Shown: positions 2,108-64,000, counted from the stretch's first letter. The stretch is DNA of 64,000 nt from an uncultured Oscillospiraceae bacterium (GCA_944387115.1 CALXDR010000004.1:699-64698); one strand, 5' to 3'. Program-made: numbers and translations. Notes: generated by a model not told the origin, from the letters alone.

Positions 2108-2198
2108 TCGGGGGCATAGCCCCACACGCTGGGCACCACCGGAATACTTTTGTTTATGCAACCGTTTAAGCCATGGATTTTATGGCGGAAAGGGCAAT

Positions 2199-3020
2199 AT
2201 GAACATCATTGAGAAACAACATCAGGGCGTCACCTTCCTGGCGGCAGACGAGCTTTCTGCCGCCGGCGGGGTGGCCCACGGCTTTTCCACCCGTCTGGGC
2301 GGGGTTTCCCAGGGGATGTGGAGCTCCCTCAACCTGGGGGTGAGCCGGGGGGATGACCCCGACCATGTGCGGGAGAACTACCGGCGGTTTTTATCCGCCG
2401 TTGGCGCTGCCGGGGGGCGGCTGGCGATGGCCAATCAGGTGCATGGGGGCGAGGTGCGCACAGTGACCTCCGCCGACTGGAAGCAGGACCCTTACGGCAA
2501 GGTGTGTTTTGAGGCCGACGGCCTGATGACCGACATTCCCGGAGTGGCGCTGTGCGTGTTTACCGCCGACTGCATTCCCGTGCTTTTCTACGACCCGGTG
2601 CGCCGGGTGGTGGCCGCCGTCCACGCCGGGTGGCGGGGCACCGCCGCAGGCATCGCCGCCCGGGCGGTGGAGCGGATGGGCCAGGTGTACGGCAGCCGGC
2701 CTGAGGATATTTTGGCTGCCATCGGCCCGGGCATCGGCCCGTGCTGCTTCGACACCCATGAGGATGTGCCCAACGCCATGATGGCCTCCCTGTCCACCGC
2801 CGCCCTGGCGTATATCCAGAGCCTGGAGAACGGCAAATATTCCGTGGATTTAAAGGGCATCAATGCCCGGCAGCTGGAGCAGGCGGGGGTGCTTGGGGAG
2901 CACATCGCCGTGTGCCAGGCGTGTACTGCCTGCGACACGGAGACCTTCTGGAGCCACCGGCGGATGGGCATCAACCGGGGCTCTATGGCGTCGGTGATTG
3001 CACTGCAATGCACAGACTGA
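2199..3020 (+). CDS. pgeF: Peptidoglycan editing factor PgeF (YfiH/YlmD laccase-like domain)
   Basis: Motifs FSTRLGGVS, NQVHG, TADCIPVL, HAGWRG, IGPGIGPCCF; start placed at ATG 2199. Confidence 0.93.
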   Translation: MNIIEKQHQGVTFLAADELSAAGGVAHGFSTRLGGVSQGMWSSLNLGVSRGDDPDHVRENYRRFLSAVGAAGGRLAMANQVHGGEVRTVTSADWKQDPYGKVCFEADGLMTDIPGVALCVFTADCIPVLFYDPVRRVVAAVHAGWRGTAAGIAARAVERMGQVYGSRPEDILAAIGPGIGPCCFDTHEDVPNAMMASLSTAALAYIQSLENGKYSVDLKGINARQLEQAGVLGEHIAVCQACTACDTETFWSHRRMGINRGSMASVIALQCTD

Positions 3021-4537: not shown

Positions 4538-4604
4538 TGTGATAAATAGACTTGGCAAGGCTCTGACGTATGGGGGGCCGACGGCAAAAGGGAGAGATCT
4601 TGGA

Positions 4605-7600
4605 ATGAGTCATGTATTTCGGTGTTATGTGGAAAAGCGGCCCGGCTTTGATGTGGAGGCGGGCAGCACCCTGCGGGAGCTGCGCAATCAGCTGGGCATT
4701 GCAGGGCTGAGGGGTGTGCGGCTGTTCAACCGCTATGACGTGGAGGGGGTGGATGCGGCGGTTTATCAGGCCGCCCAGTCCACCGTATTCTCAGAGCCTC
4801 AGTGCGACCTGCTCTACGAGGAGCATCTGCCCGCCCTGGGGGAGGAGGTGCGCCTGTTGGCGGTGGAGGCTCTGCCCGGTCAGTATGACCAGCGGGCAGA
4901 CTCCTGCGAGCAGTGCATCATGCTCCTGGCGGGGGTGGAGCGCCCCAGGGTGGTCAACGCCCGGGTGTATGCGCTGGAGGGGGTGCTCACCGAGCAGGAG
5001 CTGGAGCGGGTGAAGGGCTATCTCATCAACCCGGTGGAGTGCCGGGAGGCCTCCATGGACAAGCCGGACACCCTGGAGCGCACCTACCAGACGCCAAGTC
5101 AGGTGCCCGTGCTCACCGGCTTTACCACCCTGGACCGGCAGGGACTGGAGGGACTGCTGGAGGAATACGGCCTTGCCATGGATTTGGCGGACTTGACCTT
5201 CCTCCAGGGGTATTTTCGGGATGAGGAGGGGCGTGACCCCACCATCACCGAGGTGCGGGTGGTGGATACTTACTGGTCTGACCACTGCCGCCACACCACC
5301 TTTTCCACCCACATTGACCGGGTGGAAATCCTTGACCCCCAGGTGGCCGCCGCCTACCAGAGGTACCTGGACGCCCGGGTGGAGGTGTATGGAGAGGCAC
5401 GGGCGGCCCAGCGGCCTCAGACGCTGATGGACATTGCCACCATTGCCGCCAAGACCCTCAAGCAGCGGGGCCTGCTGGCCAATCTGGATGAGAGTGAGGA
5501 AATCAACGCCTGCTCCATCCATGTCACCGCCACGGTGGACGGGGAGGCCCAGGACTGGCTGCTCATGTTCAAAAATGAGACCCACAACCACCCCACCGAG
5601 ATTGAGCCTTTTGGCGGGGCGGCCACCTGCATTGGCGGCTGCATCCGCGACCCCCTGTCCGGTCGGGCCTATGTGTACCAGGCCATGCGTCTGACCGGCG
5701 GCGGCGACCCCACCGTGCCCATGAGCCAGACCCTGCCGGGCAAGCTGCCCCAGCGCAAGCTGGCCCAGACTGCGGCGGCGGGCTATTCCTCCTACGGCAA
5801 CCAGATTGGACTTGCAACCGGGCTGGTGCACGAGGTATACCACCCCGGCTACATCGCCAAGCACCTGGAGGTGGGGGCTGTGGTGGGGGCCGCCCCCGCC
5901 CACCATGTGGTGCGGGAGCGCCCTGCGCCCGGAGATGTGGTCATCCTGCTGGGCGGCCGCACCGGCCGGGACGGCATTGGTGGGGCCACCGGCTCCTCCA
6001 AGAGCCACAACCAAAGCTCGCTGTCCACCATGGCAAGCGAGGTGCAGAAGGGCAACGCCCCCGAGGAGCGCAAGCTCCAGCGGCTGTTCCGTGACCCCGC
6101 TGTCACCACCCTCATCAAGCGGTGCAACGACTTCGGCGCCGGCGGGGTATGCGTGGCCATTGGCGAGCTGGCTGACGGGCTGTCCATTGACCTGGATGCT
6201 GTGCGCAAGAAGTACGACGGGCTGGATGGCACGGAGCTGGCCATCTCCGAGTCTCAGGAGCGCATGGCGGTGGTGGTGGCCCCTGAGCACGAGGCCGCCT
6301 TCCTGGCCGCTGCCCAGCGGGAGAACTTGGAGGCCTATCGGGTGGCGTTGGTCACCCAGCAGGCCCGGATGGTGCTGACCTGGAAGGGACAGACCATTGC
6401 AGACCTCTCCCGCAGCTTCCTCAACACCAACGGCGCAGACAAGCACACCACTGTGACGGTGCCCCGGCGCACCGGCGCACGCCCGGCCCCCTATACCAGC
6501 CTGCGGGAGGTGGCCTCCTGCCTGGCCTGCGCCTCGAGAAAGGGTCTGACCGAGCGGTTTGACGGCTCCATTGGCGCCGCCTCGGTGCTCATGCCCTTTG
6601 GGGGCATCACCCAGCGCACCCCCACCCAGGTCATGGCCGCCACCCTCCCTGTGGAGCCGGGCAAGACCACGGAGGCCTGCTCGGTGATGAGCTGGGGCTT
6701 TGACCCCCACTGGATGTCCGCCGACCCCTATGCCGGGGCGTCTGCGTCGGTGGTGCTCTCCATGGCCAAGCTGGTGGCGGCAGGGTGCGACCCCAGGGCC
6801 GCCTACCTCACCTTCCAGGAGTATTTTGAAAAGCTGCGGGAGGACCCCAGCCGCTGGGGCAAGCCCTTTGCCGCACTGCTGGGCACTGTGGAGGCGCAGC
6901 TGGGGCTGGAGGTGGCCGCCATTGGCGGAAAGGACTCTATGTCCGGGTCCTTCCTCGACTTGGATGTGCCCCCCACCCTCATTTCCTTTGCCGTGGCCCC
7001 TGCGCAGGCCAGCCAGGTGCTCTCCCCTGAGTTCAAGGCCGCAGGCCACCCGGTGGTGCTCTTCCCCGCCCCGGATGGGCAGGATTACGCCGCCCTGCGC
7101 ACCCTGTGGCAGCAGGTACACCAGCTGGCCCAGGCGGGCAGGCTGCGGGCCGCCTGGGCGGTGGAGGGCGGCGGCGTGGCGGAGGCTGTGATGAAGATGG
7201 CCTTCGGCAACGTCATTGGCTTTGCCGCCCAGCCCGGCGTAGAGGCGCCCTGGTACGGGCATATGCCCGGGGCCATTGTGGCGGAGCTGGCGGATGACCA
7301 GATTCCCCAGGGGGCAGTGCTCCTGGGCCATACCACCCAGGAGGGTGTGATTGCCCTGGAAGGGGACAGCGCCGGTGTGGAGGAGCTGTGCGCCCTGTGG
7401 GAAGGGGTGCTGGAGGGAGTATATCCCACCGATCCGGGTACGCAGGATGAGCCGGTGCCGGTGATTTCCTGGCAGGGACGCTCTCCCGCTGTGTTCACCC
7501 AGCAGGTGGGCCAGCCCCGGGCCATTATCCCCGTGTTCCCCGGCACCAACTGCGAGTATGACACCGCCGCCGCCTGCCGCAAGGCGGGCATCCAGCCTGA

Positions 7601-10935: not shown

Positions 10936-12342
10936 ATGAGCAACAAGTTTGATGTGATGGTTTTGGGCACTGGCGAGGCGGGCATCTTTGCCGCCTACGA
11001 GCTGGCCCTCAAAGCGCCGGGAGCCAAGGTGCTGGTGGTGGACCAGGGTGCGGATATTTACCACCGCAGCTGTCCCATTGTGGCAGGCAAGGTGAAAAAC
11101 TGCATCCAGTGCAAGGTGTGCGACACCATGTGCGGCTTTGGCGGCGCAGGTGCGTTCTCCGATGGCAAATACAACTTCACCACTGCATTCGGCGGCTGGC
11201 TCACCGACTTTTTGGACGAGCGGGAAGTGATGGAGCTGATTGACTATGTGGACGAGCTGAATGTGAAGCACGGGGCCACCACCGAGGTCTATTCCACTGC
11301 CACCCCCGCCGCCCGCGCCCTGGAGAAGCAGGCGCTGCAGCATGACCTGCATCTGCTCCAGGCTCGATGCAAGCACCTGGGCACGGAGAACAATCTGCGC
11401 ATCCTCACCAACATCTATGAGCACATTCGGGACAAGCACACCTTCCTCTTCCACACCGCTGTGGAGGAGATTCTCACCGACAACGAGGGGCACTACACCC
11501 TGGTGACCAGCAAGGGTGAGCGCTACACGGCTCCCTATCTCATTGCCGGGCCCGGCCGCTCCGGTGCGGAGTGGTTTGCCAACCAGTGCAAGAAGCTGGG
11601 GCTGGAGCTGCTCAACAACCAGGTGGATGTGGGCGTGCGTGTGGAGCTGCCCGCCACCGTGTTCGAGCACATCACCGATGTGGTGTACGAGTCCAAGCTG
11701 GTCTACCGCACCAAGCAGTACGGCGACCACGTGCGCACCTTCTGCATGAACCCCTATGGTCACGTGGTGGCGGAGAACGTGGAGGGCATCAACACTGTCA
11801 ACGGGCACTCCTATTCCGACCCCGCTCTGCGCAGCCAGAACACCAACTTTGCCCTGCTGGTGTCCAACCGCTTTACCTCCCCCTTCAATGAGCCCTATCG
11901 CTACGGCAAGCATATTGCCTCTCTGAGCAATATGCTGGCTGGCGGCGTACTGGTGCAGCGCTTTGGGGATCTTGTCAGCGGCATCCGCACCAATGAGCAC
12001 CGTTTGAGCAAGTCCTTCACCCGGCCCACTCTCACCGCCGCTGTGCCCGGTGACTTGTCCCTGGCCCTGCCCAAGCGCCAGCTGGATGACATCATTGAGA
12101 TGATTTATGCCCTGGACAAGCTGGCTCCCGGCACTGCCAACTACGACACGCTGCTCTATGGCGCTGAAGTGAAGTTCTACTCGGCCCGCATCAGCCTGTC
12201 CAACCAGCTGGAGACTGCCCTGCCCGGCTTCTTCGCTGTGGGTGACGGTGCTGGCGTCACCCGTGGCCTGGCTCAGGCAGGCGCTTCCGGCGTCAAGGCC
12301 GCCCGTGTGGTGGCTGAGCGCATGAATGGCGCAGGGGTGTAA
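10936..12342 (+). CDS. NAD(P)/FAD-dependent oxidoreductase (uncharacterised FAD-dependent dehydrogenase family)
   Basis: N-terminal GxGxxG variant GTGEAG, GFGGAGAFSDGK, TFCMNPYG, VGDGAGVTRGL. Confidence 0.88.
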   Translation: MSNKFDVMVLGTGEAGIFAAYELALKAPGAKVLVVDQGADIYHRSCPIVAGKVKNCIQCKVCDTMCGFGGAGAFSDGKYNFTTAFGGWLTDFLDEREVMELIDYVDELNVKHGATTEVYSTATPAARALEKQALQHDLHLLQARCKHLGTENNLRILTNIYEHIRDKHTFLFHTAVEEILTDNEGHYTLVTSKGERYTAPYLIAGPGRSGAEWFANQCKKLGLELLNNQVDVGVRVELPATVFEHITDVVYESKLVYRTKQYGDHVRTFCMNPYGHVVAENVEGINTVNGHSYSDPALRSQNTNFALLVSNRFTSPFNEPYRYGKHIASLSNMLAGGVLVQRFGDLVSGIRTNEHRLSKSFTRPTLTAAVPGDLSLALPKRQLDDIIEMIYALDKLAPGTANYDTLLYGAEVKFYSARISLSNQLETALPGFFAVGDGAGVTRGLAQAGASGVKAARVVAERMNGAGV

Positions 12343-12357
12343 GCCCTGATGGATTGA

Positions 12358-12391
12358 AAACTGCCCGCCCCCGTGAGGGGGCGGGCAGTTT
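12358..12391 (+). terminator. Intrinsic terminator after oxidoreductase
   Basis: AAACTGCCCGCCCCC-GTGA-GGGGGCGGGCAGTTT. Confidence 0.85.
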
Positions 12392-12434
12392 GTGCGTGGA
12401 GGGGTAAATTTCAATGGAAGTAAGGGCTGGTGCG

Positions 12435-12668
12435 CCTGCATCCTATTAAAAAAGGCCTTGGGGGTTTGGGATGGCTCGGACGCTTCTAAGATGTCACGCC
12501 TCGCCTGCTCACGACGCTCGGCTTCCCTCCGATTCGGGACACAAACAGGCCGGCCGTGCCGTCCTTGGTTTGTATCCCTCACTTCGGTCCATCCGAGCTG
12601 TTCGCAACGGCTCGGACGCTTCTAAGATGTCACGCCTCGCCTGCTCGCGACGGCTCGGGCGCTTCTAA
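12435..12668 (-). repeat. Mosaic palindromic repeat array 2
   Basis: Reverse strand reads GAAGCGCCCGAGCC...GAAGCGTCCGAGCCGTTGCGAAC...GAAGCGTCCGAGCC followed by a degenerate T-module start. Confidence 0.88.
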
Positions 12669-13005
12669 TCAAACATATGCTCTAGGTTCCGATAATCCGG
12701 CGTTGTGGAAGTTGGGGGGATGAAGTGTATCGAAGTTTGGCGCATTTTTGGAGAAAAAGCGATATTTTTTCTCCAAAAAGCGTACTTCAACAACTTCAAC
12801 ATAGTTTTCAACAAACAAAGATAGGATGTGGAACCTGAGGGAGGTAGACATAACAAAAATCACGCAAGGAGAATGCTGGGAGATTTTTGGGGATATTGGA
12901 GGTCGAAACGGGGGATTTCTCCACAGCAGCGCACTTTTCCATGGGGGAGAGAGGGCTGGGGGGTGAGGCGGTGGAGAGGGGGTGTCTTTGTGGAAGGCGG
13001 AAACG

Positions 13006-13040
13006 AACAGCCCTGGGCCACAGCTTGGCCCAGGGCTGTT
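13006..13040 (-). terminator. Terminator downstream of pepF
   Basis: AACAGCCCTGGGCCA...TGGCCCAGGGCTGTT inverted repeat. Confidence 0.75.
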
Positions 13041-13097
13041 ATTGCAGCAATCAGAGCATGGGAGGGGATGGGGCTGAGGGTACGCCGGAGGGACAGA

Positions 13098-14906
13098 TTA
13101 CTCTGCCAGCAGGTGCTCCATCTCGTCCAGCAGGGTGTCGAACAGATTCAGGGCGTTCTGAATGGGCTGGGCGCTGGTCATGTCCACCCCTGCGCCCTTG
13201 AGCAGGTCGATGGGGTCCTTGGAGCAGCCGCCGGAGAGGAATGCCAGATAATCCTTCACCGCCTGCTCCCCTTCGGTCAGGATGCGCTGGGACAGGGCGA
13301 TGGCGGCAGAGTAGCCGGTGGCGTACTGGTACACGTAGTAGTTGTAGTAGAAGTGGGGGATGCGGGACCACTCCAGGGCAATCTCCGGGTCGCACACCAC
13401 ATCGGGGCCGTAGTACTTCTCGTTGAGGGCCTTGTACTCCCGGCTGAGCACGTCGGCGGTGAGGGGCTCGCCCTGGGCGGTGAGCTGGTTCATGCGCAGC
13501 TCAAACTCCGCAAACTGGGTCTGGCGGTACAAAGTGCCCTTAAACTGGTCCAGGAAGTGGTTGATGAGATAGATGCGGGAGGCTTTGTCCGTGGTATTGG
13601 CCAGCAGGTACTGCATGAGCAGTGCCTCGTTGCAGGTGGAGGCAACCTCCGCCACGAAAATCACATAGCTGCGGTAGGCGGGGTGCTGGCCCTGGGTGGA
13701 CAGGTAGGAGTGGAGGGCGTGACCCATCTCGTGGGCCAGGGTGAACATACTGTCCAGGGTGTCCTTGTGGTTGAGCAGCACATAGGGGTGGGGGAGACAG
13801 AAGCCGGAGGAGTAGGCGCCAGAGCGCTTGCCCACATTCTCGTAGACATCAATCCAGCGGTTGTCAAAGGCCTCCTTCAAAATGGCCCGGTACCCCTCAC
13901 CCAGGGGGGCAAGGGCCTGGTACACCGTCTCCTTGGCCTGTTCATAGGGGATGACCTGATCGGCATCTGCCACCATGGGGACGGCCAGGTCGTACATATG
14001 CATCTCATCCAGACCCAGAACCTGCTTGCGCAGCTTCATGTACCGGTGGAGCTTGTCCAGGTTGGCGTTCACCGTGTCAATCAGGGTGTGATACACCGAC
14101 TCGGGCACCCGGGTGCTGCTCAATGCGGCGCTGAGGGTATTGGGATAGTTTCGGGCCTGTGCGAAGAACTTCAGCTTCTGCATCTGGCCGGACAGGGAGG
14201 CCGCCAGCGTGTTTTTCATGCCGCCATAGGTTTGATACATGGTCTGGAAGGCGGACTGGCGCAGGGCACGGTCGCTGCTCTCCAGCAGAGGGATGTAGGC
14301 GCCGTTGCTCATGGGATGGGGGCGGCCCTCGCCGTCCAGGGCATCGGGGAAGGTGAGGTCGGCGTTGGACAGCTTGGAAAACACTTCGGTGGGCACATTG
14401 CACACCTGGCTGGCGGCAGCCAGCAGCTGTTCCTCCCGGTCAGAGAGGATGTGCGCCCGCTTGTCCCGCTGGCGGGTAAACATCAGGCGGTAAACCTCCA
14501 GGCGGGGTTCCTGGGCATAGAAGCCCTCCAAGGTCTCATCGGAAATGCCCAGCAGCTCCGGAGTGGAGAAGGCGGTGGCGCTGCTGGCCTGAGAGAGCAG
14601 GGAGAAGGCCTTGCTGGACATGGCCTGATACTCGGGCACCCGGGTGTCCTGGTCATACTTGCGCTGGGCGTAGTTGTACAGCTGGGACAGGGCGGTGTTT
14701 ACCTCCGTGTACAGCTCGGTGAAGGCCAAAAGGGTGGCGGCATCCTGGCCCAGACGGCCTTTGTACGCCTCCAGCTGGGGCAGAAGGTGCAGGGTCTTGT
14801 CGTACTCCGCCTGCCAGACCTCGTCAGAGGCAAACATATGGGTGGTATCCCAGGTGTGCTCCTGGGGGATTTGACTGCGCTCGGGCACAGTGTTGCGTTC
14901 TGCCAT
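13098..14906 (-). CDS. pepF: Oligoendopeptidase F (M3B)
   Basis: KRSGAYS, zincin HEMGH, FVAEVASTCNE, WSRIPHFY; start MAERNTVPERSQIP. Confidence 0.96.
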   Translation of the reverse strand: MAERNTVPERSQIPQEHTWDTTHMFASDEVWQAEYDKTLHLLPQLEAYKGRLGQDAATLLAFTELYTEVNTALSQLYNYAQRKYDQDTRVPEYQAMSSKAFSLLSQASSATAFSTPELLGISDETLEGFYAQEPRLEVYRLMFTRQRDKRAHILSDREEQLLAAASQVCNVPTEVFSKLSNADLTFPDALDGEGRPHPMSNGAYIPLLESSDRALRQSAFQTMYQTYGGMKNTLAASLSGQMQKLKFFAQARNYPNTLSAALSSTRVPESVYHTLIDTVNANLDKLHRYMKLRKQVLGLDEMHMYDLAVPMVADADQVIPYEQAKETVYQALAPLGEGYRAILKEAFDNRWIDVYENVGKRSGAYSSGFCLPHPYVLLNHKDTLDSMFTLAHEMGHALHSYLSTQGQHPAYRSYVIFVAEVASTCNEALLMQYLLANTTDKASRIYLINHFLDQFKGTLYRQTQFAEFELRMNQLTAQGEPLTADVLSREYKALNEKYYGPDVVCDPEIALEWSRIPHFYYNYYVYQYATGYSAAIALSQRILTEGEQAVKDYLAFLSGGCSKDPIDLLKGAGVDMTSAQPIQNALNLFDTLLDEMEHLLAE

Positions 14907-32893: not shown

Positions 32894-33688
32894 TTACCAG
32901 GGCTTATCCTTCTCCTCGGCGTACACAGAGGGGAGGATGGCGGCCAGGTTGCTGTACTCCTTGATGTTGTGGCCGTACAGGGCACGGGGCACAATCTCGG
33001 GGATGGACACGCCGTCGGGCACCAGCTTGACCAGCTGACCCTCCTGGTTGGGGCCGTAGCCCATCCAGAAGCGGGAGCAGAAGAGGATGCCCCCTTCGGC
33101 CTTGCGGGCGATGTGGGTCATCAGAGCGGGGGCGCTGCCCAGACCGTAGGCGCACACCATGGCCAGGCAGTCGTCGGTGCCGATGAGGGACTCGTCATAG
33201 CCCAGCTCGGAGGGACGGCGGAAGCAGAGCAGCAGGTCGTCTGCGCCCAGGCCGATGTCCTCCTTGATGGAGTGGTTCACACCCCAGGTCTTTTGGTTCA
33301 GGGGCACGTTGGGGTCCTTGACATACTCGGGCTTGTCGGCACGGGCATACCAGTGATCCTCCTTGTCCCACATCTTATAGCGCAGGTCGGAGGTGACGCT
33401 GTGCCAGCCGAACCACCAGTCAATCATCTCAGCGGTGACGCCGGGCATAAAGGTGGTGTTGGCCACAAAGCCGGTGCCGTTGGGGGCCACGGTGAAGCCG
33501 TCTTGCAGGCCGGGCACATCTGCCCTCTGGAACTTTGCACGATCCTCAAAGGCCAGGGCGGTGGAGGGGTCGGCCATGGGGCCTTGCCACACATCCAGCT
33601 TTTCCTGGGGAATAGCGGCAAGGGGCTGGTTGAAGTACTTGGCGTAGGAGAGCTGCGCCTCCTCTGGGGTCAGAACGGGACGATCCAT
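32894..33688 (-). CDS. phy: Phloretin hydrolase (PhlG/DAPG hydrolase family C-C hydrolase)
   Basis: MPGVTAEMIDWWFGWH, LRYKMWDKEDH, QKTWGVNHSIKEDIG, SRFWMGY, HNIKEYSNLAAILP; closely resembles my recollection of Eubacterium ramulus Phy (not aligned). Confidence 0.85.
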   Translation of the reverse strand: MDRPVLTPEEAQLSYAKYFNQPLAAIPQEKLDVWQGPMADPSTALAFEDRAKFQRADVPGLQDGFTVAPNGTGFVANTTFMPGVTAEMIDWWFGWHSVTSDLRYKMWDKEDHWYARADKPEYVKDPNVPLNQKTWGVNHSIKEDIGLGADDLLLCFRRPSELGYDESLIGTDDCLAMVCAYGLGSAPALMTHIARKAEGGILFCSRFWMGYGPNQEGQLVKLVPDGVSIPEIVPRALYGHNIKEYSNLAAILPSVYAEEKDKPW

Positions 33689-33809
33689 GTCAATTACCTC
33701 GCTTTCCAAAATTGGCTGGCCCACTCCATTGGCAGGCCAATTACATAACTTGTACAAAAATATGATACTAGATTCCAACCTGTTTGTGAAATATTCGTTT
33801 GGAAGGGGC

Positions 33810-34718
33810 CTATTCCGTGAGGGGATAGATGGTGTCCAGCACGGACAGGAGGCGGGGGATGCAGGGGTTTTCGTTGTTCTCCCGCCACAGTGCCACCAGG
33901 TCAAAGCTGTCGTCCTGGGGCTGTTCCTCGTCCGCCAGGGGAATCATCACCAGACCGGGGTGGCGGCGGTATTGAAATTTGCTCATCAGCCCAAAGCCAT
34001 CGTCGTGGAGCTGGAGCTGGAGGAGCATGGACTCATGGCTGGAGTGGGGGAGGGTCAGCTGGGGCTGAAATTGGTGCTGGGCAAAAAAGCGCATGATGCT
34101 CAGATACCCGTCGGGGGTCACATTGGGCTGCATGGAGTAGTAGGGCAGGCCCGCCAGGTCTGCCAGACGGAGCACCGGGCGATGGGCCAAAGGGCTGTAA
34201 GGGCTGAGGAGCACCTGCAGCCGCCCCCGCTCCAGGGTGCGCCGGCGCAGGTGGGGGCGTCCGGTACGGGCAAAGCCCATGGTGAAGGCCACATCCACCC
34301 CGCCGCTGTCCACCTGATGAATGAGCTGACCGAATTCAAACCAGTCCAGCTGGGTGCGCACCTGGGGATGGACCTGGCGGAAGGCACGCAGCACCGACAC
34401 GGCTTCGTCTGCCAGGACACTGAAGGCCCCCGCCCGCAGCCGTCCGACCTGTGCCTGGCGGGGGTGGCGCAGGGTGGTCACCGCCTCGTCCAGCTCCTCT
34501 AGAATCTGCACGCAGCTGTGATAAAAACGCTCGCCCTCCTGGGTGAGGCGCACCATGCGGGTATCCCGCAAAAACAGCTGTACGCCCAGCTCCTGCTCCA
34601 GCAGATTGATGTGCTTGCTCACCGCACTTTGGGCGATGTACCGCTCCTTGGCCGCCCCGGTAAAAGAGCTGTGGTTGGCCACAGCCACAAAGGTTTTCAG
34701 CAGCTTCAAGTCCACCAT
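33810..34718 (-). CDS. LysR family transcriptional regulator
   Basis: LKTFVAVANHSSFTGAAKERYIAQSAVSKHINLLEQELGVQLFLRDTRMVRLTQEG. Confidence 0.95.
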   Translation of the reverse strand: MVDLKLLKTFVAVANHSSFTGAAKERYIAQSAVSKHINLLEQELGVQLFLRDTRMVRLTQEGERFYHSCVQILEELDEAVTTLRHPRQAQVGRLRAGAFSVLADEAVSVLRAFRQVHPQVRTQLDWFEFGQLIHQVDSGGVDVAFTMGFARTGRPHLRRRTLERGRLQVLLSPYSPLAHRPVLRLADLAGLPYYSMQPNVTPDGYLSIMRFFAQHQFQPQLTLPHSSHESMLLQLQLHDDGFGLMSKFQYRRHPGLVMIPLADEEQPQDDSFDLVALWRENNENPCIPRLLSVLDTIYPLTE

Positions 34719-34864
34719 GACGCCCCCTCGATGTAGGATGAGAACAGCATACGACAGGATACCCGCCTCTGTCAATCCTCACCAGTCCCCTTCGGGGTAA
34801 AAAATGTCCCCTGCCTGCGCAGTGCAGACAGGGGACGGACAGGAATCGGATGTGAGGGACTGGC

Positions 34865-57775: not shown

Positions 57776-58315
57776 TTATCCCTGCCGCTCCAGGTGGGGA
57801 TGGGGCGGGGGCAAGCGGCTGGGAGGCACCCACACAATTTCACCGGGGGCGGGGCCGTGACAGCACACAGCAGCCCACCAGTCCCCGCCGTGATAGGCCT
57901 CATGGGGGCAGTGGGGGGGCATTACCGCCCGGCGGGGCGGATAGAGGGGGCTGTCCTCCCGCTTGCACCAGCTCTCCTTCAGCGTCCACAGCCGGGTGAA
58001 GGAGGACCAGGTGCCGTCGAACTGGGCCAATTCCTCCGGGGCCAGGGCGTAGCGGGGGAGGGAGGGCCGGTGGGGGCGCACAAGCTCCACATCTACCCCA
58101 ACAGGGCCGCAGTCGGACAGGGCGCAAACGGCCAGCCCCCCGCTGTGGGACAGGGAGAGCCACCGGCCCGGCTGGGCAAACAGGGGCTTGCCCCGGGGGC
58201 TGTAAGTGAGGGGCTGGGAGGGGACTGCCCCCCACAGATGGGTGCAGGCATAGGTGAGCAGGGCACGGGTCAGGGTGCGTCCCTCCTGCCCGGCCACCCC
58301 GTAGACAGCCGTCAT
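57776..58315 (-). CDS. 4'-phosphopantetheinyl transferase (short Sfp-like)
   Basis: PRGKP, LSLSHSG, VGVDVE, LWTLKES. Confidence 0.85.
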   Translation of the reverse strand: MTAVYGVAGQEGRTLTRALLTYACTHLWGAVPSQPLTYSPRGKPLFAQPGRWLSLSHSGGLAVCALSDCGPVGVDVELVRPHRPSLPRYALAPEELAQFDGTWSSFTRLWTLKESWCKREDSPLYPPRRAVMPPHCPHEAYHGGDWWAAVCCHGPAPGEIVWVPPSRLPPPHPHLERQG

Positions 58316-58345
58316 GCCCCAACCTCCCCGGCTGGGGCGGCCCAA

Positions 58346-58798
58346 TCAGCCCCTGGGCTTGTAGTCGCGAATTTCATGCTCGGGCACATCATAGTTTTCC
58401 ATGACATCACGGAGGGCCTGCATATACTTCTCCGACTTGTGCACCACAAAGGCATCCGGATCGATGGGCATATTCAGTGCGTCCATGCGGCGGATTGCCC
58501 AGATATACATGGCGTCCAGGGCGGGCATGAGCTGCTTGCCCGCCTCGGTGAGCTCATAGGATACCTTGGGGGGCGCTACATCGTAGGCAATGCGGTTGAC
58601 CAGGCCGTCCTCCACCAGCTCCTTGAGCTGCTGGCTGAGTACCTTTTCCGACAGGGGAAAGACTCGCACGGCGTAGTTGAAGCGGATGGAGCCAAAGGTG
58701 TAAATTTCGTGCAGAATGGTCATCTTCCACTTCCCGCCGATGCATTGGCGGATGTAGTGGTAGGGGTTGATGGGTTGCTTGTCGTCGGCAGCGCCCAT
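58346..58798 (-). CDS. HxlR family winged-helix regulator
   Basis: IGGKWKMTIL, SEKVLSQQLKELVEDGLVNR, PPKVSYELT. Confidence 0.92.
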   Translation of the reverse strand: MGAADDKQPINPYHYIRQCIGGKWKMTILHEIYTFGSIRFNYAVRVFPLSEKVLSQQLKELVEDGLVNRIAYDVAPPKVSYELTEAGKQLMPALDAMYIWAIRRMDALNMPIDPDAFVVHKSEKYMQALRDVMENYDVPEHEIRDYKPRG

Positions 58799-59097
58799 GG
58801 CGGAATGTCACCCTTTCTCTGTAAGTATAGAAATCCAGGGGATAGAGGAACAAAAACCCCCATTCTGAGCATTCAGTATACCATAGCTTTGGGGCACTTG
58901 CAAGACGGCGGCGGGGGGCGGGCGGTGCGTGTTGCTGATTTCGGTAGAAAAACTCTGCGTGTTTTCATACAAAGTACACAGAAAAGCGGGGGGAATTCAC
59001 CAAAAAGCATTGTTAAAGTTTGGACACTTTCGACGAAAAGAAGGGGCACAGCGACTTGGACAAAAAAATTTTCGAGAACCTTACCAAATTGTCAGTA

Positions 59098-59125
59098 TTG
59101 TCAATGGGAGAAAAAATCCTATAAT
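59098..59125 (+). promoter_or_regulatory. Putative SigA promoter of catabolic operon
   Basis: TTGTCA-16bp-TATAAT in AT-rich intergenic region. Confidence 0.55.
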
Positions 59126-59200
59126 AGTTCTTATAGAGTAGAACCTGGCTTGAACGACAGGACAGGCGGACTGAGCGCAAGCAAGAAAGGAAGATGCATC

Positions 59201-59551
59201 ATGATTAAGAGAACCTATGAAGAGCTGGAGCCCTATTTCCCCGCCGGTCACTTCGGCGTGACCTGCAAGCGCTACCACGGCAAGGACGAGACCGGCGCCA
59301 GCAAGTTCTGGATTGGCGTATCTGAGTTTGAACCCGGCGGCGGCGCAGACTGGGCCTATGACGACAACCCCCTGGAGAAGGTGTACTATGTGCTGGAAGG
59401 GGAGATGACCGTCACCGACAAGGACGGCAACAAGTATGTGATTCATGCCAACGAGTCCATCAGCTTCCCCCCCAACGAGGGCCGGGGTCTGAAGAATGAG
59501 TCCGATCAGCCCGCCAAGATGCTGGTGATTATCAACTACCCTGAGGCATAA
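59201..59551 (+). CDS. Cupin domain protein (116 aa)
   Basis: [31 protein letters not shown] cupin pattern; AAGGAA RBS. Confidence 0.85.
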
Positions 59552-59616
59552 ATAGCGCCGGGCCGCGCAACAAAGCCGGGCGCAAAACACCCACTACATA
59601 CAAGGAGGAAGCTATC

Positions 59617-60411
59617 ATGGTCCCCATTCAGAAGAGTTTTGTACAGAATATGTTCTCCGTGGAGGGCAAGGTTGCCCTGGTCACCGGCGCCACCGGTGCG
59701 CTGGGCTGCGTGCTGGCCAAGGCCTACGGCTATGCCGGCGCCAAGGTATTCATGACCGGGCGCAACGAGGCCAAGCTCAAGGCCCTGGAGGAGGAGTTCC
59801 AGGCTGAGGGCATCGACTGCGGCTACTTCGTGGCCGACCCCGCCGTGGAGGAGGACGTGGACGGGCTGGTCAAGGCCTGTGTGGCCAAGTACGGCGAGGT
59901 GAACATCCTGGCTGTGGCCCACGGCTACAACAAGCCCCAGAATGTGCTGGAGCAGTCTGTGGCCGACTGGCAGAAGATTATGGACGCCGACTGTAAGTCT
60001 GTGTACATCGTCACCAAGTATGTGGCCCACCAGATGGTGGCGCAGGGCAAGGGCGGCAAGATGGTGGTGGTCACCTCCCAGCGCTCCAAGCGGGGCATGG
60101 CCAACTACACCGGCTACTGCACCTCCAAGGGCGGCGCTGACCTGATGGTGTCCTGCCTGGCCTGCGACCTGACCGCCAAGTACGGCATCAACGTCAACTC
60201 CATCTGCCCCACTGTGTTCCGCTCCGATCTGACCGAGTGGATGTTCGACCCCGAGTCCGCCGTGTACAAGAACTTCCTGGCCCGTGAGCCCATCGGCCGC
60301 CTGGGCGAGCCTGAGGACTTTGTGGGCTACTGCCTGTTCCTCTCCTCCGACGCCTCCAACTTCATCACCGGCAGCAACTGTGACTGCTCCGGCGGCTACC
60401 TGACCGTGTAA
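59617..60411 (+). CDS. SDR oxidoreductase, probable phloroglucinol reductase
   Basis: [11 protein letters not shown] (basic residue typical of NADP-dependent SDRs), YCTSK; closely resembles my recollection of the characterised clostridial phloroglucinol reductase (not aligned). Confidence 0.8.
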
Positions 60412-60436
60412 GCCCGGCCGGGTAAGGAGAGCAGCA

Positions 60437-61369
60437 ATGGATATCAAGCGCATTCTCATTGTGGGTGCGGGCATGATGGGCAAGAACATTGCCTTCGTCA
60501 TGACTGCCAACCCCGCCTATACCGTGGGTGTGTACGACCTGTATGAAACGGATTTGGCCGCCGGCATCCGTGCCAACACCCAGCAGCTGGTGGACAAGGG
60601 CATACTCACCGCCCAGGAGCTGGAGGAGCGCCTGGAGCGGGTGGCGTTTACCACCGACCTGGAAAGTCCTCTGGTCAGCCAGGCCGACCTGGTGATTGAG
60701 GCCGTATTCGAGGATATGCAGGTCAAGCGGGAGACCTTTGCCAAGCTGGAGGCCCGCTGCCGCCCCGACACCATCTTCTGCACCAACTCTTCGGTGATGA
60801 GCCCCAGCGAGATTTCCGCCCAGCTCACCCACCGTGAGCGCTTCGTGGGCACCCACTTCTGGAACCCCGGGCACCTGATTCCCCTGGTGGAGGTCATCAA
60901 GTCGGACGCCTCCAGCGATGCGGTGGCGCAGACGGTGCTGGACGTGCTCACCAGCGTAGGCAAGAAGGCGGTGCTGTGCAAGAAGGATGTGCCCGGCTTC
61001 ATCGCCAACCGCCTGCAGCACGCCCTCTGGCGTGAGGCCTTCTACATGGTGGAAAACGGCATTGCCGACGCCAAGACTGTGGACGATGCGTGTAAGTACG
61101 GTCCCGGTCTGCGCTGGCCCATTATGGGGCCCATGGAGAACTCCGACCTGGTGAGCATCACCCTCACCAAGAACATCCACGACTATATTCTCCCCTCCCT
61201 GGCGGACAATCACGAGCCCTCCAAGTGTCTGGCGGAGATGCTGGAGCGGGGAGAGGACGGCTTTAAGACCGGAAAGGGCTGGCAGTCCTGGACACCGGAG
61301 CAGATGCAGGCCTCCAACGACGGCCTGCGGGCATATCTGATTGACTACCTGGCCCGTCAGCAGCAGTAA
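60437..61369 (+). CDS. 3-hydroxyacyl-CoA dehydrogenase family protein
   Basis: GAGMMG, EAVFED, TNSS, GTHFWNPGHLIPLVEV, PGFIANRLQ. Confidence 0.9.
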   Translation: MDIKRILIVGAGMMGKNIAFVMTANPAYTVGVYDLYETDLAAGIRANTQQLVDKGILTAQELEERLERVAFTTDLESPLVSQADLVIEAVFEDMQVKRETFAKLEARCRPDTIFCTNSSVMSPSEISAQLTHRERFVGTHFWNPGHLIPLVEVIKSDASSDAVAQTVLDVLTSVGKKAVLCKKDVPGFIANRLQHALWREAFYMVENGIADAKTVDDACKYGPGLRWPIMGPMENSDLVSITLTKNIHDYILPSLADNHEPSKCLAEMLERGEDGFKTGKGWQSWTPEQMQASNDGLRAYLIDYLARQQQ

Positions 61370-61438
61370 TCTGCCGCTGGCCCCAAGGGCAAGGAGCAAA
61401 ACCATAGTACATTTCATTTTTTACTGGAGGTAATAAAC

Positions 61439-62452
61439 ATGGGTAAGAAAGTTTTTGTTGACCTGACGCACCCCTTCGGCGCGGAGATTCCCCGCTGGCC
61501 GTACTTTGACAAGCCCACCATCGACAACACCCACACCATGGCCAAGGGCGGCGTGCTCACCCAGAAGATCACCTGCACCATGCACACCGGCACCCACTGC
61601 GATGCGCCCCGCCACGTGATGGAGTATGAGTTTGACGGCCGCCGTGCCCGCTACACCCACGAGATGCCCATCGACGCCTACACCGGCGAGGCCGTGGTGC
61701 TCAAGGTGGACATCGAGCCCTGGGGCCTGATCACCGACAAGCACCTGGATGCAGCCTGCCAGGCCTGCGGCATCAACCCCGCCGACCTGAAGGACAAGGT
61801 GGTGTGCCTGAACACCGGTATGCACCGCCTGTTCGACGACTCCAAGGCCTACTATCACTATGCCAGCGGCACCGGCGTGGAGGCCGGCAAGTGGTTTGTG
61901 AAGCACGGCGTGAAGTGCGTGGCCATGGACGGCCAGGCGCTGGATCACCCCCTGCACACCGCTATGGGCAACAACGGCATGACCCGCATGAACCTGCTGG
62001 GCGCCACCGGCAAGCCCATCACCGAGGAGTACAAGGAGCTGTTTGGCGAGGAGGCCTATGCCGAGTTCGACAAGTTCGAGTACATCCGTCTCCACGGTCA
62101 GGCCGCCTACGACGAGAAGTTCGGCGACCTGGAGAACCTGGGCCTGTGGGGCACCTGGGAGCCCTGCCACAAGCAGATGCTGGGCCACGGCATTGTGGGC
62201 GTGGAGAACCTGGGCGGCGACCTGGACAAGATTCCCGCCGGCAAGGTGTTCCAGTTCTACTGCTTCCCCCTGCGCTGGTACATGGGCGACGGCTCCATGG
62301 CCCGCTGCGTGGCTCAGATTGACGAGGACGACCTGGTGCCCGGCGTGCCCGACCGCACCTACACCTACGGCGGCACCGGCTATGCCGACGAGTCCGGCAA
62401 CGGCGGCAGCGGCCTGGAGTATATGCAGAAGCTGTTCAACCGCAATAAGTAA
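61439..62452 (+). CDS. Cyclase family (kynurenine formamidase-like) metal-dependent hydrolase, probable dihydrophloroglucinol cyclohydrolase
   Basis: HTGTHCDAPRH (HxGTHxDxPxH), GVENL, GDGSMARCVA; context. Confidence 0.78.
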   Translation: MGKKVFVDLTHPFGAEIPRWPYFDKPTIDNTHTMAKGGVLTQKITCTMHTGTHCDAPRHVMEYEFDGRRARYTHEMPIDAYTGEAVVLKVDIEPWGLITDKHLDAACQACGINPADLKDKVVCLNTGMHRLFDDSKAYYHYASGTGVEAGKWFVKHGVKCVAMDGQALDHPLHTAMGNNGMTRMNLLGATGKPITEEYKELFGEEAYAEFDKFEYIRLHGQAAYDEKFGDLENLGLWGTWEPCHKQMLGHGIVGVENLGGDLDKIPAGKVFQFYCFPLRWYMGDGSMARCVAQIDEDDLVPGVPDRTYTYGGTGYADESGNGGSGLEYMQKLFNRNK

Positions 62453-62616
62453 CACCACATCAGACCGATTGGTGAGGTGTTCCACCGGCGGGCGGGGGTT
62501 GTCCCGTCCGCCGGTTTGTCACCTGCGGCTGCACACCCTGGCGGCGTGCAGCGGCGATTTCCCGCTATTCCCCTCGCATTTCCCCCAAAACCCTGTGGAA
62601 AGAGAGTGCGCAACTT

Positions 62617-63954
62617 ATGGAGAAGAAGGTAAATTCCCTGCCGGATGGCAATAAAGGTTCTATTTTTCGCTTTGGTGCATGGGGATGGCTGACCATCCTG
62701 TATTGCCTGCTGATGTTCTTCCTGTATGTGGGTATGTGCAACGACGGCTCCAACATCACAGCCCCCGCCGTGGCGGAGGCGCTGGAGGTCAACCGGGGCG
62801 TCATTATGAACATAAACTCCGCTGCCGGTCTGGTGGGCGTGGTGTTCTTTATCATTGTGGGCCAGGTCAACCGCCGCATTGGCGCCCGCATGACCTCCGG
62901 CATCTGCAACATTGTGGCTGGCGTGGCCTACATTGCCGCCTGCAATGCCCCCAATGTCATTTTGTACGGTATAGCCATGTGCTTTGTGTACGGCGGGATT
63001 ATGTCTGCCGGTTATGTAGCCGGCGGCACCCTGGTGGCCGAGTGGTTCCCCAAGAAGAAGGGCATCGTGATGGGTTATACCACCATGGGGCACAACTTTG
63101 CCTCTGCCTTCTATGTGCAGCTGGTGTCCATTCTGGTGGCCCCCACGGTGCTGGGCAACATCGGCGCGGCTGTGGTGCCCATCGGCGTGGCCGCCATTGT
63201 GCTGGGCATTCTGGGCATGGTGCTCATCCGCAACACCCCCCAGGAGCGGGGGCTGAACCCGGACAACGTGTCCGACAAGGTGTACGCCGAGGAGTATGAC
63301 ACGGTGGATTCCATCTCCGACGGCGGCTGGACCACCGGAAAGCTGCTGCGCACCAAGGAGCTGTGGCTGGCGGCCATTACCACCGGTATGTACCAGATCT
63401 GCTCGGTGGGCGTTATGAGCCAGCTGGTGCTGCGCAACGAGGAGCTGGGGATGGACACCCAGACCGCCTTGAACATCATGACCATTCTGGCCCTGGGCGG
63501 TGTGTTTGGCTCCTGGTTGGTGGGCGTCATCGACGAGAAGTGGGGCACCAAAAAGACCATGATTCTCTTCGGTGTGTGGTACTGCGTGGCGCTGCTGTGC
63601 AACTTCACCGCTGTGGACTCTGTGACGCCTATGGTGTACATCTCCCTGTTTATGATTGCCATGGGCATTGGCGGCTCTGCCAACTTCACCACCTCTCTGC
63701 CCACCTCCATCTTTGGCCGCCATGGCTTTGACCAGGTCAATGCGGTGATCTTCCCCATTCAGGGCGCTGTCACGGCCTTGTGCTTTGCCGTCAACGGCGT
63801 GGTGCAGCTGATGACCGGCGGCCAGATTCGTATGGCCTACCTGGTGTTTGCCGGGGTGGCTGTGGTCACTGCGCTGATGGTGTGCGCCATTGACGAGCAC
63901 AAGTATAACCGGGACTGGAAGGCCGCCCACGACCACGAGCACGCCAAGGTCTAA
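62617..63954 (+). CDS. MFS transporter
   Basis: About 12 TM segments, RRIGAR and DEKWGTK loop motifs, EWFPKKKGIVMG. Confidence 0.92.
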   Translation: MEKKVNSLPDGNKGSIFRFGAWGWLTILYCLLMFFLYVGMCNDGSNITAPAVAEALEVNRGVIMNINSAAGLVGVVFFIIVGQVNRRIGARMTSGICNIVAGVAYIAACNAPNVILYGIAMCFVYGGIMSAGYVAGGTLVAEWFPKKKGIVMGYTTMGHNFASAFYVQLVSILVAPTVLGNIGAAVVPIGVAAIVLGILGMVLIRNTPQERGLNPDNVSDKVYAEEYDTVDSISDGGWTTGKLLRTKELWLAAITTGMYQICSVGVMSQLVLRNEELGMDTQTALNIMTILALGGVFGSWLVGVIDEKWGTKKTMILFGVWYCVALLCNFTAVDSVTPMVYISLFMIAMGIGGSANFTTSLPTSIFGRHGFDQVNAVIFPIQGAVTALCFAVNGVVQLMTGGQIRMAYLVFAGVAVVTALMVCAIDEHKYNRDWKAAHDHEHAKV

Positions 63955-64000
63955 GACTGGGGCGCAACTTGCCCCTGTTGTGCCTATAAAAACCTGCATT

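Follow-up and report, generated by a model that had tools for sequence, protein, structure and literature searches.

A chicken-gut Oscillospiraceae locus very probably orthologous to the anaerobic phloroglucinol degradation cluster and headed by a widely conserved cupin gene

Phloroglucinol is a common ring fragment from the degradation of flavonoids and tannins by gut and soil anaerobes. Does the group of genes at the end of one contig from an uncultured bacterium encode the breakdown of this compound, and does the group hold anything beyond the published pathway? The DNA analyzed here (the window) is a stretch of 64,000 nucleotides, C4:699-64698. It comes from an uncultured Oscillospiraceae bacterium of the chicken gut, a close relative of Candidatus Enterenecus. 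The original prediction read the last genes of the window as an anaerobic phloroglucinol degradation operon with a divergent HxlR regulator. Very probably, the locus is indeed orthologous to the gene cluster for anaerobic phloroglucinol degradation described by Zhou et al. (2023, mBio), as each enzyme matches its characterized counterpart by sequence at a level beyond family membership. The predicted gene set (divergent HxlR regulator, cupin, SDR, 3-hydroxyacyl-CoA dehydrogenase-like enzyme, cyclase and MFS) is present, and all six genes from HxlR to MFS are intact open reading frames at or near the positions first assigned to them. The features of the locus, and of a second one upstream in the same window, are:

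32894-33694, minus strand: predicted phloretin hydrolase (DAPG_hydrolase family; PF18089, E 5e-67)
33810-34775, minus strand: LysR regulator with the phloretin hydrolase (PF00126/PF03466)
58346-58798, minus strand: HxlR-family (DUF24/MarR-type) regulator (PF01638, E 3e-24), divergent from the operon
58799-59200, no strand: AT-rich divergent control region (GC 0.46-0.50)
59201-59551, plus strand: single-domain cupin of 116 aa, operon gene 1 (PF07883, E 7e-16)
59617-60411, plus strand: predicted phloroglucinol reductase (PGR), an NADPH-dependent SDR (223/263 identity to 5G4K/5G4L; TGRN at 47-50)
60437-61369, plus strand: predicted (S)-3-hydroxy-5-oxohexanoate dehydrogenase (TfD), 3-hydroxyacyl-CoA dehydrogenase family (PF02737 and PF00725)
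61439-62452, plus strand: predicted dihydrophloroglucinol cyclohydrolase (DPGC), Mn-dependent cyclase family (PF04199, E 9e-30)
62485-62520, plus strand: GC-rich hairpin with a 14-bp stem, then TTTGTC, in the gap between DPGC and MFS (from sequence and fold)
62617-63954, plus strand: MFS transporter, oxalate/formate-antiporter-like (PF07690)
63955-64000, plus strand: spacer before the TAL (BKACE) gene, whose ATG lies at window-equivalent 64023

The five plus-strand genes are separated by gaps of 25-164 nt, and PGR, TfD, DPGC and TAL lie on one strand within a span of 5.3 kb. This layout suggests an operon read as a single transcript. A search of RNA runs turned up none that contains the locus. 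A terminator scan of the plus strand across the operon returned no terminator-like site; the hairpin at 62485-62520, in the 164-nt gap between DPGC and MFS, was missed by the scan because its T tract is weak. It may serve to terminate transcription in part or to stabilize the mRNA. By blastn, this gap has no similarity to a family of hairpin repeats present elsewhere in the window.

The assignment of the enzymes rests on close sequence identity and on signature residues. PGR is 84.8% identical (223/263, E 8e-152) to the protein in PDB entries 5G4K and 5G4L, whose title, "Phloroglucinol reductase from Clostridium sp.", was confirmed via a fold search; a search of searchable papers for the term "5G4K" gave no match. 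We take these entries to be the PGR of Clostridium sp. ATCC BAA-442 (Conradt et al., 2016). The NADPH motif and the catalytic Tyr/Lys (here an NADP-type TGRN at 47-50 and Y167xxxK171) are common to the two proteins, which differ, across species, by 40 substitutions. The PGR, DPGC, TfD and TAL steps have been shown with enzymes of Clostridium scatologenes (Zhou et al., 2023; PMC10470551). Each of these characterized enzymes has tryptic peptides that align with the proteins encoded here: one 16-residue CsPGR peptide is matched exactly in PGR, and the CsTfD and CsDPGC peptides align closely to TfD and DPGC. DPGC has Trp20 and Tyr22 at the positions of CsDPGC, where isatin hydrolase has Ile/Leu (PMC10470551), and a metal motif HTGTHCDAPRH at 49-59. 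It is 83-92% identical to orthologues from 80 species and 88% identical to the DPGC of Flavonifractor plautii, itself 84% identical to CsDPGC. A search for a solved structure of DPGC found none, the best matches being kynurenine formamidases (E 4e-6). Comparison with characterized PGR and DPGC, proposed in the original prediction as a check, thus came out in its favor, PGR through its identity to 5G4K/5G4L and DPGC through the signature residues of CsDPGC.

The triad of TfD (Ser119/His140/Asn191) corresponds to Ser122/His143/Asn194 of CsTfD. TfD enzymes have been described as keeping this Ser/His/Asn set but lacking Lys56 and Asn221, with which true 3-hydroxybutyryl-CoA dehydrogenases bind CoA (PMC10470551). 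The protein encoded here reaches only about 70% identity to the TfD of the Flavonifractor cluster, itself 52-55% identical to CsTfD, and the assignment of its substrate therefore draws on context. The MFS protein has weak NCBIfam matches to the OFA/lactate MFS group. Many related clusters have a counterpart of its gene (59-81% identity), and an MFS gene has been mentioned for the C. scatologenes cluster (PMC10470551). It is a probable phloroglucinol importer.

A BKACE/triacetate lyase gene had been predicted to lie beyond position 64000, and its start was found there. The ATG of TAL is 68 nt past the MFS stop codon, at C4:64721, and a PF05853 match covers C4:64751-64828. The open reading frame reads MADIKELKNRCIITVATTGAWPKKENNPNVPMTPAE, with only 36 codons assembled. 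These N-terminal 36 residues include TGAW, the counterpart of the Glu14-to-Trp16 change by which TAL is recognized, with Trp in place of the amine-binding Glu14 of Kce (PMC10470551). The rest of TAL, where the Zn ligands would lie, is missing from the assembly: across the 1.68-Mb bin, Pfam matched just two N-terminal pieces of 27 residues, each at the end of a contig. The ends of C4 and of a second contig, C48, carry an identical 77-nt tail, a hallmark of an assembly graph that forks at a k-mer. C48 was considered as the continuation of C4 and rejected, since the upstream sequences that lead into this common k-mer differ between the two contigs and the GC content of C48 is 53%, against 62.6% for the window. 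Other assemblies of the same sequence were located by exact-protein look-up of the MFS gene. Four independent assemblies, as four contigs with the same stop point, end within the first 21-36 codons of TAL or just before it.

Could the locus be something other than a working phloroglucinol cluster? The assembly break raises the thought that the cluster is a non-functional remnant with a truncated or missing lyase gene, since TAL runs out on the contig after 36 codons and the bin is without another BKACE body. Such decay is very unlikely: the tail common to C4 and C48 bears the mark of a k-mer fork, the break recurs in four independent assemblies, all the other genes are intact, and related loci have a full-length TAL. 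The pairing of a BKACE with a dehydrogenase of the 3-hydroxyacyl-CoA dehydrogenase family is also typical of lysine-fermentation or carnitine-type beta-keto-acid cleavage, which acts on amino or quaternary-amine acids, and TfD has weak NCBIfam matches to carnitine dehydrogenase. Membership in a cluster of that type is nonetheless scarcely credible, as the BKACE here has Trp at the position of the amine-binding Glu of Kce, and PGR and DPGC have no role in those pathways.

The same enzyme families might instead act on a substituted phloroglucinol, a resorcinol-type compound or another cyclic 1,3-dione. Distant relatives of the cupin do occur in clusters that clearly handle other aromatics. The identity of PGR to an enzyme crystallized and named as phloroglucinol reductase speaks against a different substrate, as do the conservation of DPGC at 83-92% across known phloroglucinol degraders (Flavonifractor, Coprococcus) and its Trp20/Tyr22 substrate-pocket signature, and we consider this explanation very improbable.

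How does the locus compare with known clusters? About 80 species-representative loci share the order HxlR (minus strand), cupin, PGR, (TfD), DPGC, (MFS), TAL, and carriers include Flavonifractor, Coprococcus, Fusobacterium and the model organism C. scatologenes. Because this gene order is shared by so many species, the locus is a member of the system of Zhou et al. (2023) and not a new pathway. The comparison with C. scatologenes (CSCA_1081-1091) was made via published peptides and the identity table of the paper (PMC10470551). In both loci the same four enzyme families are predicted, with the signature residues described above, beside an MFS gene and a regulator. Going by the Flavonifractor orthologues, the individual enzymes would be roughly 50-85% identical to those of C. 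scatologenes. In C. scatologenes, cupin, PGR and DPGC are CSCA_1081, CSCA_1082 and CSCA_1083, and the cupin gene is immediately upstream of PGR in both organisms; in the locus described here, PGR and DPGC are separated by TfD, and DPGC and TAL by MFS. The present host also differs in being a high-GC uncultured Oscillospiraceae bacterium with a small genome, and its TAL is partly assembled.

The phloroglucinol cluster has been noted as conserved in Flavonifractor (PMC10470551). In F. plautii and other Flavonifractor spp. the layout is HxlR (minus strand), cupin, PGR, TfD, DPGC, TAL, MFS, whereas MFS precedes TAL here. Identity to Flavonifractor is 88% for PGR, 70% for TfD, 88% for DPGC and 72% for MFS, and a promoter-proximal block is common to both. 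Cupin, HxlR and DPGC are closest to those of Ca. Enterenecus (95%, 87% and 92%), yet TfD is only 62% identical to its counterpart there. The pattern of identity within the cluster is mosaic. DPGC is carried by 11 of 37 species of the genus and is thus a patchy trait.

In the pathway proposed for the locus, phloroglucinol derived from the cleavage of flavonoids or dihydrochalcones would be imported, probably via the MFS transporter. PGR would then reduce it with NADPH to dihydrophloroglucinol, whose ring would be opened by the Mn-dependent DPGC through a retro-Claisen hydrolysis to give (S)-3-hydroxy-5-oxohexanoate. Oxidation by TfD would yield triacetate (3,5-dioxohexanoate), and the BKACE enzyme TAL would convert this with acetyl-CoA to acetoacetate and acetoacetyl-CoA. 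A thiolase and CoA-transferase A/B, encoded elsewhere in the genome (C2:31309-33962), could carry these products to acetyl-CoA. A source of phloroglucinol may also be encoded nearby. The phloretin hydrolase gene lies 25 kb upstream of the operon in the same window, and in Fusobacterium simiae a DAPG_hydrolase gene adjoins the phloroglucinol cluster. The phloretin hydrolase likely supplies phloroglucinol and would in this way be functionally linked to the operon.

How might the operon be controlled? The region between the HxlR and cupin genes (58799-59200) had been described as an AT-rich promoter region, and its GC content of 0.46-0.50 against flanks of about 0.62 agrees with that description. 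Within it, at 59098-59125, is a near-consensus promoter, TTGTCA-16-TATAAT (11 of 12 positions agree with the consensus), whose -35 hexamer is overlapped by a conserved block, CTTACCAAATTGTCAGTATTGTCA (59080-59103). The pattern T[TA]AC..TTG..[AT]TTG occurs in 13 of 39 related intergenic regions, where shuffled sequences would be expected to give 0.6, and it lies 111-140 nt from the cupin start except in one locus (453 nt). The block is a candidate HxlR operator, although its recurrence may reflect mere common ancestry. The HxlR protein has a PF01638 winged-helix domain (85 bits against a cut-off of 20.8); Cys19 is retained in 44 of 50 orthologues and a C-terminal extension (105-130) is conserved. 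In 44 of 60 related loci, a divergent HxlR gene lies in the 2 kb ahead of PGR. This association points to a phloroglucinol-responsive regulator, which would most likely control the single promoter ahead of the cupin gene.

The published pathway leaves one gene of the operon to be explained. The four-enzyme scheme for phloroglucinol is without a cupin (PMC10470551), and a literature search for a cupin with phloroglucinol reductase or BKACE returned nothing relevant. Nonetheless, the association of the cupin with PGR and DPGC is conserved. In 50 of 64 loci the cupin gene is the one immediately before PGR; this position is also seen in Fusobacterium and Collinsella, and in C. scatologenes, where CSCA_1081 lies beside CsPGR, the cupin has been detected in phloroglucinol-grown cells. 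An AF2 model of the protein has a pLDDT of 93. The nearest folds, each a single-domain barrel, are the Thermotoga maritima Mn cupin TM1459 and the cupin polyketide cyclase RemF (PDB 3HT1), with a TM-score of 0.82 at about 25% identity. A search for a close relative with a solved structure found none, TM1112 and TM1459 being the best matches. TM1459 has four His metal ligands and the cupin has none of them, as they align to D54, N56, K60 and R95. Its barrel motifs contain no conserved His; the only conserved ones are H17 and H26, in the N-terminal extension. H17, Y62 and R95 are near-invariant across the family. With all four His ligands replaced, the cupin is probably metal-free, with a cationic pocket.

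The best named NCBIfam match of the cupin is NF050094 (Rv1717-type, named beta-D-galactosidase), with nearly the whole profile covered. The cupin scores 72.4 bits against a cut-off of 175 and so is not a member. The neighboring genes are not discussed in the Rv1717 paper (PMC7873859), and Mycobacterium tuberculosis is among the carriers of the phloroglucinol cluster according to Zhou et al. (PMC10470551). The contexts of eight distant relatives of the cupin were examined, and four long contigs were informative. There, the cupin genes adjoin cyclase and SDR genes, in clusters with genes for two cyclases, SnoaL, FAA hydrolase or intradiol dioxygenase. In one actinobacterial relative the cupin gene overlaps the cyclase gene, a hint that the two proteins may form a complex. 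On the four short contigs (at most 2.8 kb), the neighbors were instead GFO/IDH/MocA, CoA-transferase, IclR and aldolase genes.

What could a cupin contribute? The leading guess is a metal-free helper that acts on ring-stage intermediates. That it is an unrecognized fifth working part of phloroglucinol catabolism, acting at the ring stage with PGR and DPGC, is a tentative proposal that we rate as possible but rather unlikely. In its most specific version, the cupin would be a metal-free keto-enol tautomerase or isomerase. The Lys60/Arg95 pocket would hold a phenolate or enolate, and the protein would supply PGR with phloroglucinol as its keto tautomer, or DPGC with diketo dihydrophloroglucinol. 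PGR has been reported to act on the keto tautomer, and DPGC is the slowest of the enzymes in vitro (about 1 s-1; PMC10470551); both observations fit a tautomerase.

To conclude, the pathway has already been published and the locus therefore brings no new biochemistry; it is ordinary apart from the small, widely conserved cupin gene at the head of the operon. This cupin, conserved across phyla beside PGR and DPGC, is the one part of the operon that the published scheme does not account for. The beta-galactosidase label of its nearest named family may be a misleading name that is spreading. If the cupin is a fifth part of the pathway, the published four-enzyme scheme would be incomplete in vivo. 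The locus also adds an abundant uncultured chicken-gut Oscillospiraceae bacterium with a small genome to the potential fermenters of phloroglucinol.

Anaerobic phloroglucinol degradation and its gene cluster have been described by Zhou et al. (2023; PMC10470551). The original prediction placed an operon for this pathway, with a divergent HxlR regulator, at 58346-63954, and its gene list was reproduced when genes were assigned from an ORF list with Pfam and NCBIfam scans of the window.

Genes of the phloroglucinol locus and the adjoining transferase gene (window coordinates)
57776-58345, minus strand, 4'-phosphopantetheinyl transferase (ACPS family)
58346-58798, minus strand, HxlR-family regulator (PF01638)
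59201-59551, plus strand, cupin of 116 aa (PF07883)
59617-60411, plus strand, short-chain dehydrogenase/reductase, SDR (adh_short)
60437-61369, plus strand, 3-hydroxyacyl-CoA-dehydrogenase-family protein (PF02737, PF00725)
61439-62452, plus strand, cyclase-family protein (PF04199)
62617-63954, plus strand, MFS transporter (PF07690)

The SDR is assigned as phloroglucinol reductase (PGR) by comparison with the characterised enzyme, PDB 5G4K/5G4L, which it matches at E 8e-152 (223 identical residues out of 263). A fold search listed both of these entries, an apo and an NADPH-bound form, under the title 'Phloroglucinol reductase from Clostridium sp.'. The window SDR carries Y167xxxK171 and, as TGRN at residues 47-50, the TR(S/N) motif that has been linked to NADPH specificity (PMC10470551). 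The cyclase is likewise assigned as dihydrophloroglucinol cyclohydrolase (DPGC) by Trp20 and Tyr22 at the exact numbering of the Clostridium scatologenes enzyme (CsDPGC), by the HxGTHxDxPxH metal motif and by 83-92% identity to orthologues in 80 species. The orthologue of F. plautii has been reported to share 84% identity with CsDPGC (cblaster table, PMC10470551). In the 3-hydroxyacyl-CoA-dehydrogenase-family protein, the predicted (S)-3-hydroxy-5-oxohexanoate dehydrogenase (TfD), the triad Ser119/His140/Asn191 corresponds to Ser122/His143/Asn194 of CsTfD. The proteomics file of the same paper lists tryptic peptides for all four C. scatologenes enzymes, and these align directly with the window proteins. 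A 16-residue CsPGR peptide is matched exactly in the window PGR, and the peptides VYVDLTHPFSADIPR, IVGTHFWNPPYLIPLVEVVK and TIITVAPTGAWPK have close counterparts in proteins of this locus. The interpretation of the operon as one for anaerobic phloroglucinol degradation is supported, and the locus adds a new member to an already published system.

The gaps between the plus-strand genes, from the cupin through the MFS gene, are 65, 25, 69 and 164 nt, and a search of the operon's plus strand revealed no terminator-like site; a single transcription unit of five genes is plausible. The 164-nt DPGC-MFS gap contains a strong GC hairpin with a 14-bp stem followed by TTTGTC (62485-62520), with a possible role in attenuating or stabilising the transcript; the hairpin repeat family at 50.4 kb is not related to it. 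The HxlR and phosphopantetheinyl transferase genes are probably co-transcribed, since the transferase start immediately follows the HxlR stop codon. The transferase has no evident tie to the pathway; in three related loci (L061, L064 and L066) a homologue is encoded close to the cluster.

The final lyase, triacetate acetoacetate-lyase (TAL, of the BKACE family), had been predicted beyond the window end, and a PF05853 match was indeed found there, starting at C4:64721 on the window's contig, 23 nt beyond the window, which spans C4:699-64698, and 68 nt after the MFS stop. The ORF (MADIKELKNRCIITVATTGAWPKKENNPNVPMTPAE) runs off the contig, which ends at 64830. In TAL, Trp has been reported to replace the amine-binding Glu14 of the lysine-pathway enzyme Kce (Zhou et al., 2023); the TGAW of the partial ORF fits this TAL-type Trp. 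Contig C48 of the same bin begins with 77 nt that, once reverse-complemented, are identical to the final 77 nt of C4. The break within the TAL gene is an assembly artefact, because a fork in a k=77 graph leaves a shared end of this kind. An identical MFS protein occurs in four independent assemblies, all ending within the first 21-36 codons of TAL or just before it, and the body of the gene is absent from the 1.68-Mb bin.

Contig C48 (53% GC; locus L004, C48:1-4671) holds a second, different module.

Genes of the C48 module
3-83, minus strand, BKACE start
117-2087, minus strand, sodium:solute symporter with a C-terminal wHTH-like tail, preceding the BKACE start
2106-2918, minus strand, cyclase-family protein of 270 aa, preceding the BKACE start
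3286-4671, plus strand, sigma-54 activator with a PAS domain, beside these genes

This module resembles the second TAL/TfD/DPGC-like cluster of F. plautii, with 38% DPGC identity (cblaster table, PMC10470551). Alternatively, C48 may be a mis-binned contig of another organism.

The HxlR-cupin intergenic region spans 402 nt, in which GC falls to 46-50% against a background of 62%, and contains a near-consensus promoter, TTGTCA-16-TATAAT (59098-59125). A divergent HxlR gene was present in 44 of the 60 loci with enough upstream sequence; its orthologues retain Cys19 (44/50) and a conserved C-terminal extension past the Pfam domain. The -35 hexamer is overlapped by a block, T[TA]AC..TTG..[AT]TTG, here CTTACCAAATTGTCAGTATTGTCA (59080-59103), that recurred in 13 of 39 related intergenic regions (0.6 expected in shuffles), at 111-140 nt from the cupin start save for one locus at 453 nt. 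The block is a candidate operator; the loci are related, and conservation alone is no proof of function.

Synteny was mapped by tblastn over 80 species-representative loci, including Flavonifractor, Lawsonibacter, Pseudoflavonifractor, Coprococcus catus, Emergencia, Aminicella and many uncultured Oscillospiraceae and Lachnospiraceae. The recurring layout is HxlR (minus strand), cupin, PGR, (TfD), DPGC, (MFS), TAL, (TfD). In Fusobacterium simiae (L085), a 755-aa multidomain Fe-S flavoprotein (11329-13596; NAD_binding_1, DHODB_Fe-S_bind, Fer4_20 and Pyr_redox_2) lies between TAL and MFS, and a small 62-aa ORF follows TAL; both are absent from the window. The nearest relative is a Candidatus Enterenecus MAG (cupin 95%, DPGC 92%, HxlR 87% and PGR 86% identity). 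TfD, however, is 62% identical to that of this MAG and about 70% to Flavonifractor-type TfDs, and the MFS protein is closest (79-81%) to clusters of another gene order, DPGC-MFS-TAL-TfD. As the nearest relatives of TfD and MFS differ from those of cupin, DPGC and HxlR, the cluster looks mosaic, and these identities suggest recombination between cluster variants. DPGC was carried by 11 of 37 species of the genus and was absent from all 24 further families that were sampled within the order, which fits an accessory, transferred trait. The window sequence was nearly complete in many chicken-gut metagenomes.

The cupin is not mentioned in the main text of Zhou et al. (2023), and a literature search found no paper tying a cupin to the phloroglucinol pathway. 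The supplementary proteomics of that study lists CSCA_1081, a 113-aa Cupin_2 protein, with three peptides detected in bands from cells grown on phloroglucinol. CSCA_1082 and CSCA_1083 are CsPGR and CsDPGC; the cupin-PGR-DPGC order is therefore common to C. scatologenes and the window. Among 64 loci, the cupin lay immediately 5' of PGR in 50 (mostly with a 10-66 nt gap), a different cupin took this position in three and none did in 11. Cupins of >70% identity in Fusobacterium simiae and a Collinsella sit within the same module. Clustering at 50% identity gives a small family of 377 clusters (E below 1e-3). For distant cupins (33-41% identity), PF04199 cyclases were nearby on all four long contigs, three of which also had SDR, 3HCDH or BKACE genes, and one cupin stop overlaps the cyclase start; four other contigs, too short to judge, had different neighbours.

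The AF2 model of the cupin is confident (pLDDT 93); its nearest folds are TM1459, a Mn cupin, and RemF, a cupin polyketide cyclase (TM-score 0.82). D54, N56, K60 and R95 take the places of the four TM1459 His ligands in the HMMER alignment. K60 and R95 are invariant in close orthologues, and R95, H17, Y62 and N99 are near-invariant over the whole family. Because the ligands are replaced and K60/R95 conserved, the cupin is unlikely to contain a metal site and likely to have a cationic pocket that would take a phenolate, an enolate or a carboxylate. The nearest named family is NF050094, the cupins of the M. tuberculosis Rv1717 type, annotated as 'beta-D-galactosidase'; with 72 bits, below the family cut-off of 175, the cupin is not a member. 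Carriers of the phloroglucinol cluster have been reported to include M. tuberculosis and M. bovis (PMC10470551). The genes around Rv1717 are not discussed in the paper on that protein; should Rv1717 sit in such a cluster, the galactosidase name may mislead.

PGR has been reported to reduce a keto tautomer of phloroglucinol. At neutral pH the substrate of DPGC is mostly enolate, and the enzyme has to attack one of its carbonyls. In vitro, DPGC is the slowest enzyme (kcat about 1 s-1, versus 22 s-1 for PGR and 78-395 s-1 for TfD; PMC10470551). A metal-free cupin with Arg/Lys and His/Tyr in its pocket might be a tautomerase or substrate-handling partner for the PGR or DPGC step. Alternatively, it could be a ligand-binding protein without a catalytic role, act on a by-product, for example triacetic acid lactone, or produce phloroglucinol from a precursor. 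Whichever its role, the cupin is not essential, since the four-enzyme pathway functions in vitro without it (PMC10470551) and the 11 loci noted lack one before PGR. It is the sole part of the locus worth experimental effort.

At 32.9-34.8 kb, the window also encodes a phloretin hydrolase of the DAPG_hydrolase family (family assignment confirmed) together with a LysR regulator. Away from the operon, a thiolase gene is directly followed by CoA-transferase subunits A and B (contig C2:31309-33962 of the bin), which would provide the post-TAL steps of acetoacetyl-CoA/acetoacetate handling. Taken together, the phloretin hydrolase, the cluster and the thiolase/CoA-transferase genes make it plausible that the organism would release phloroglucinol from dihydrochalcones, open its ring and ferment the products.
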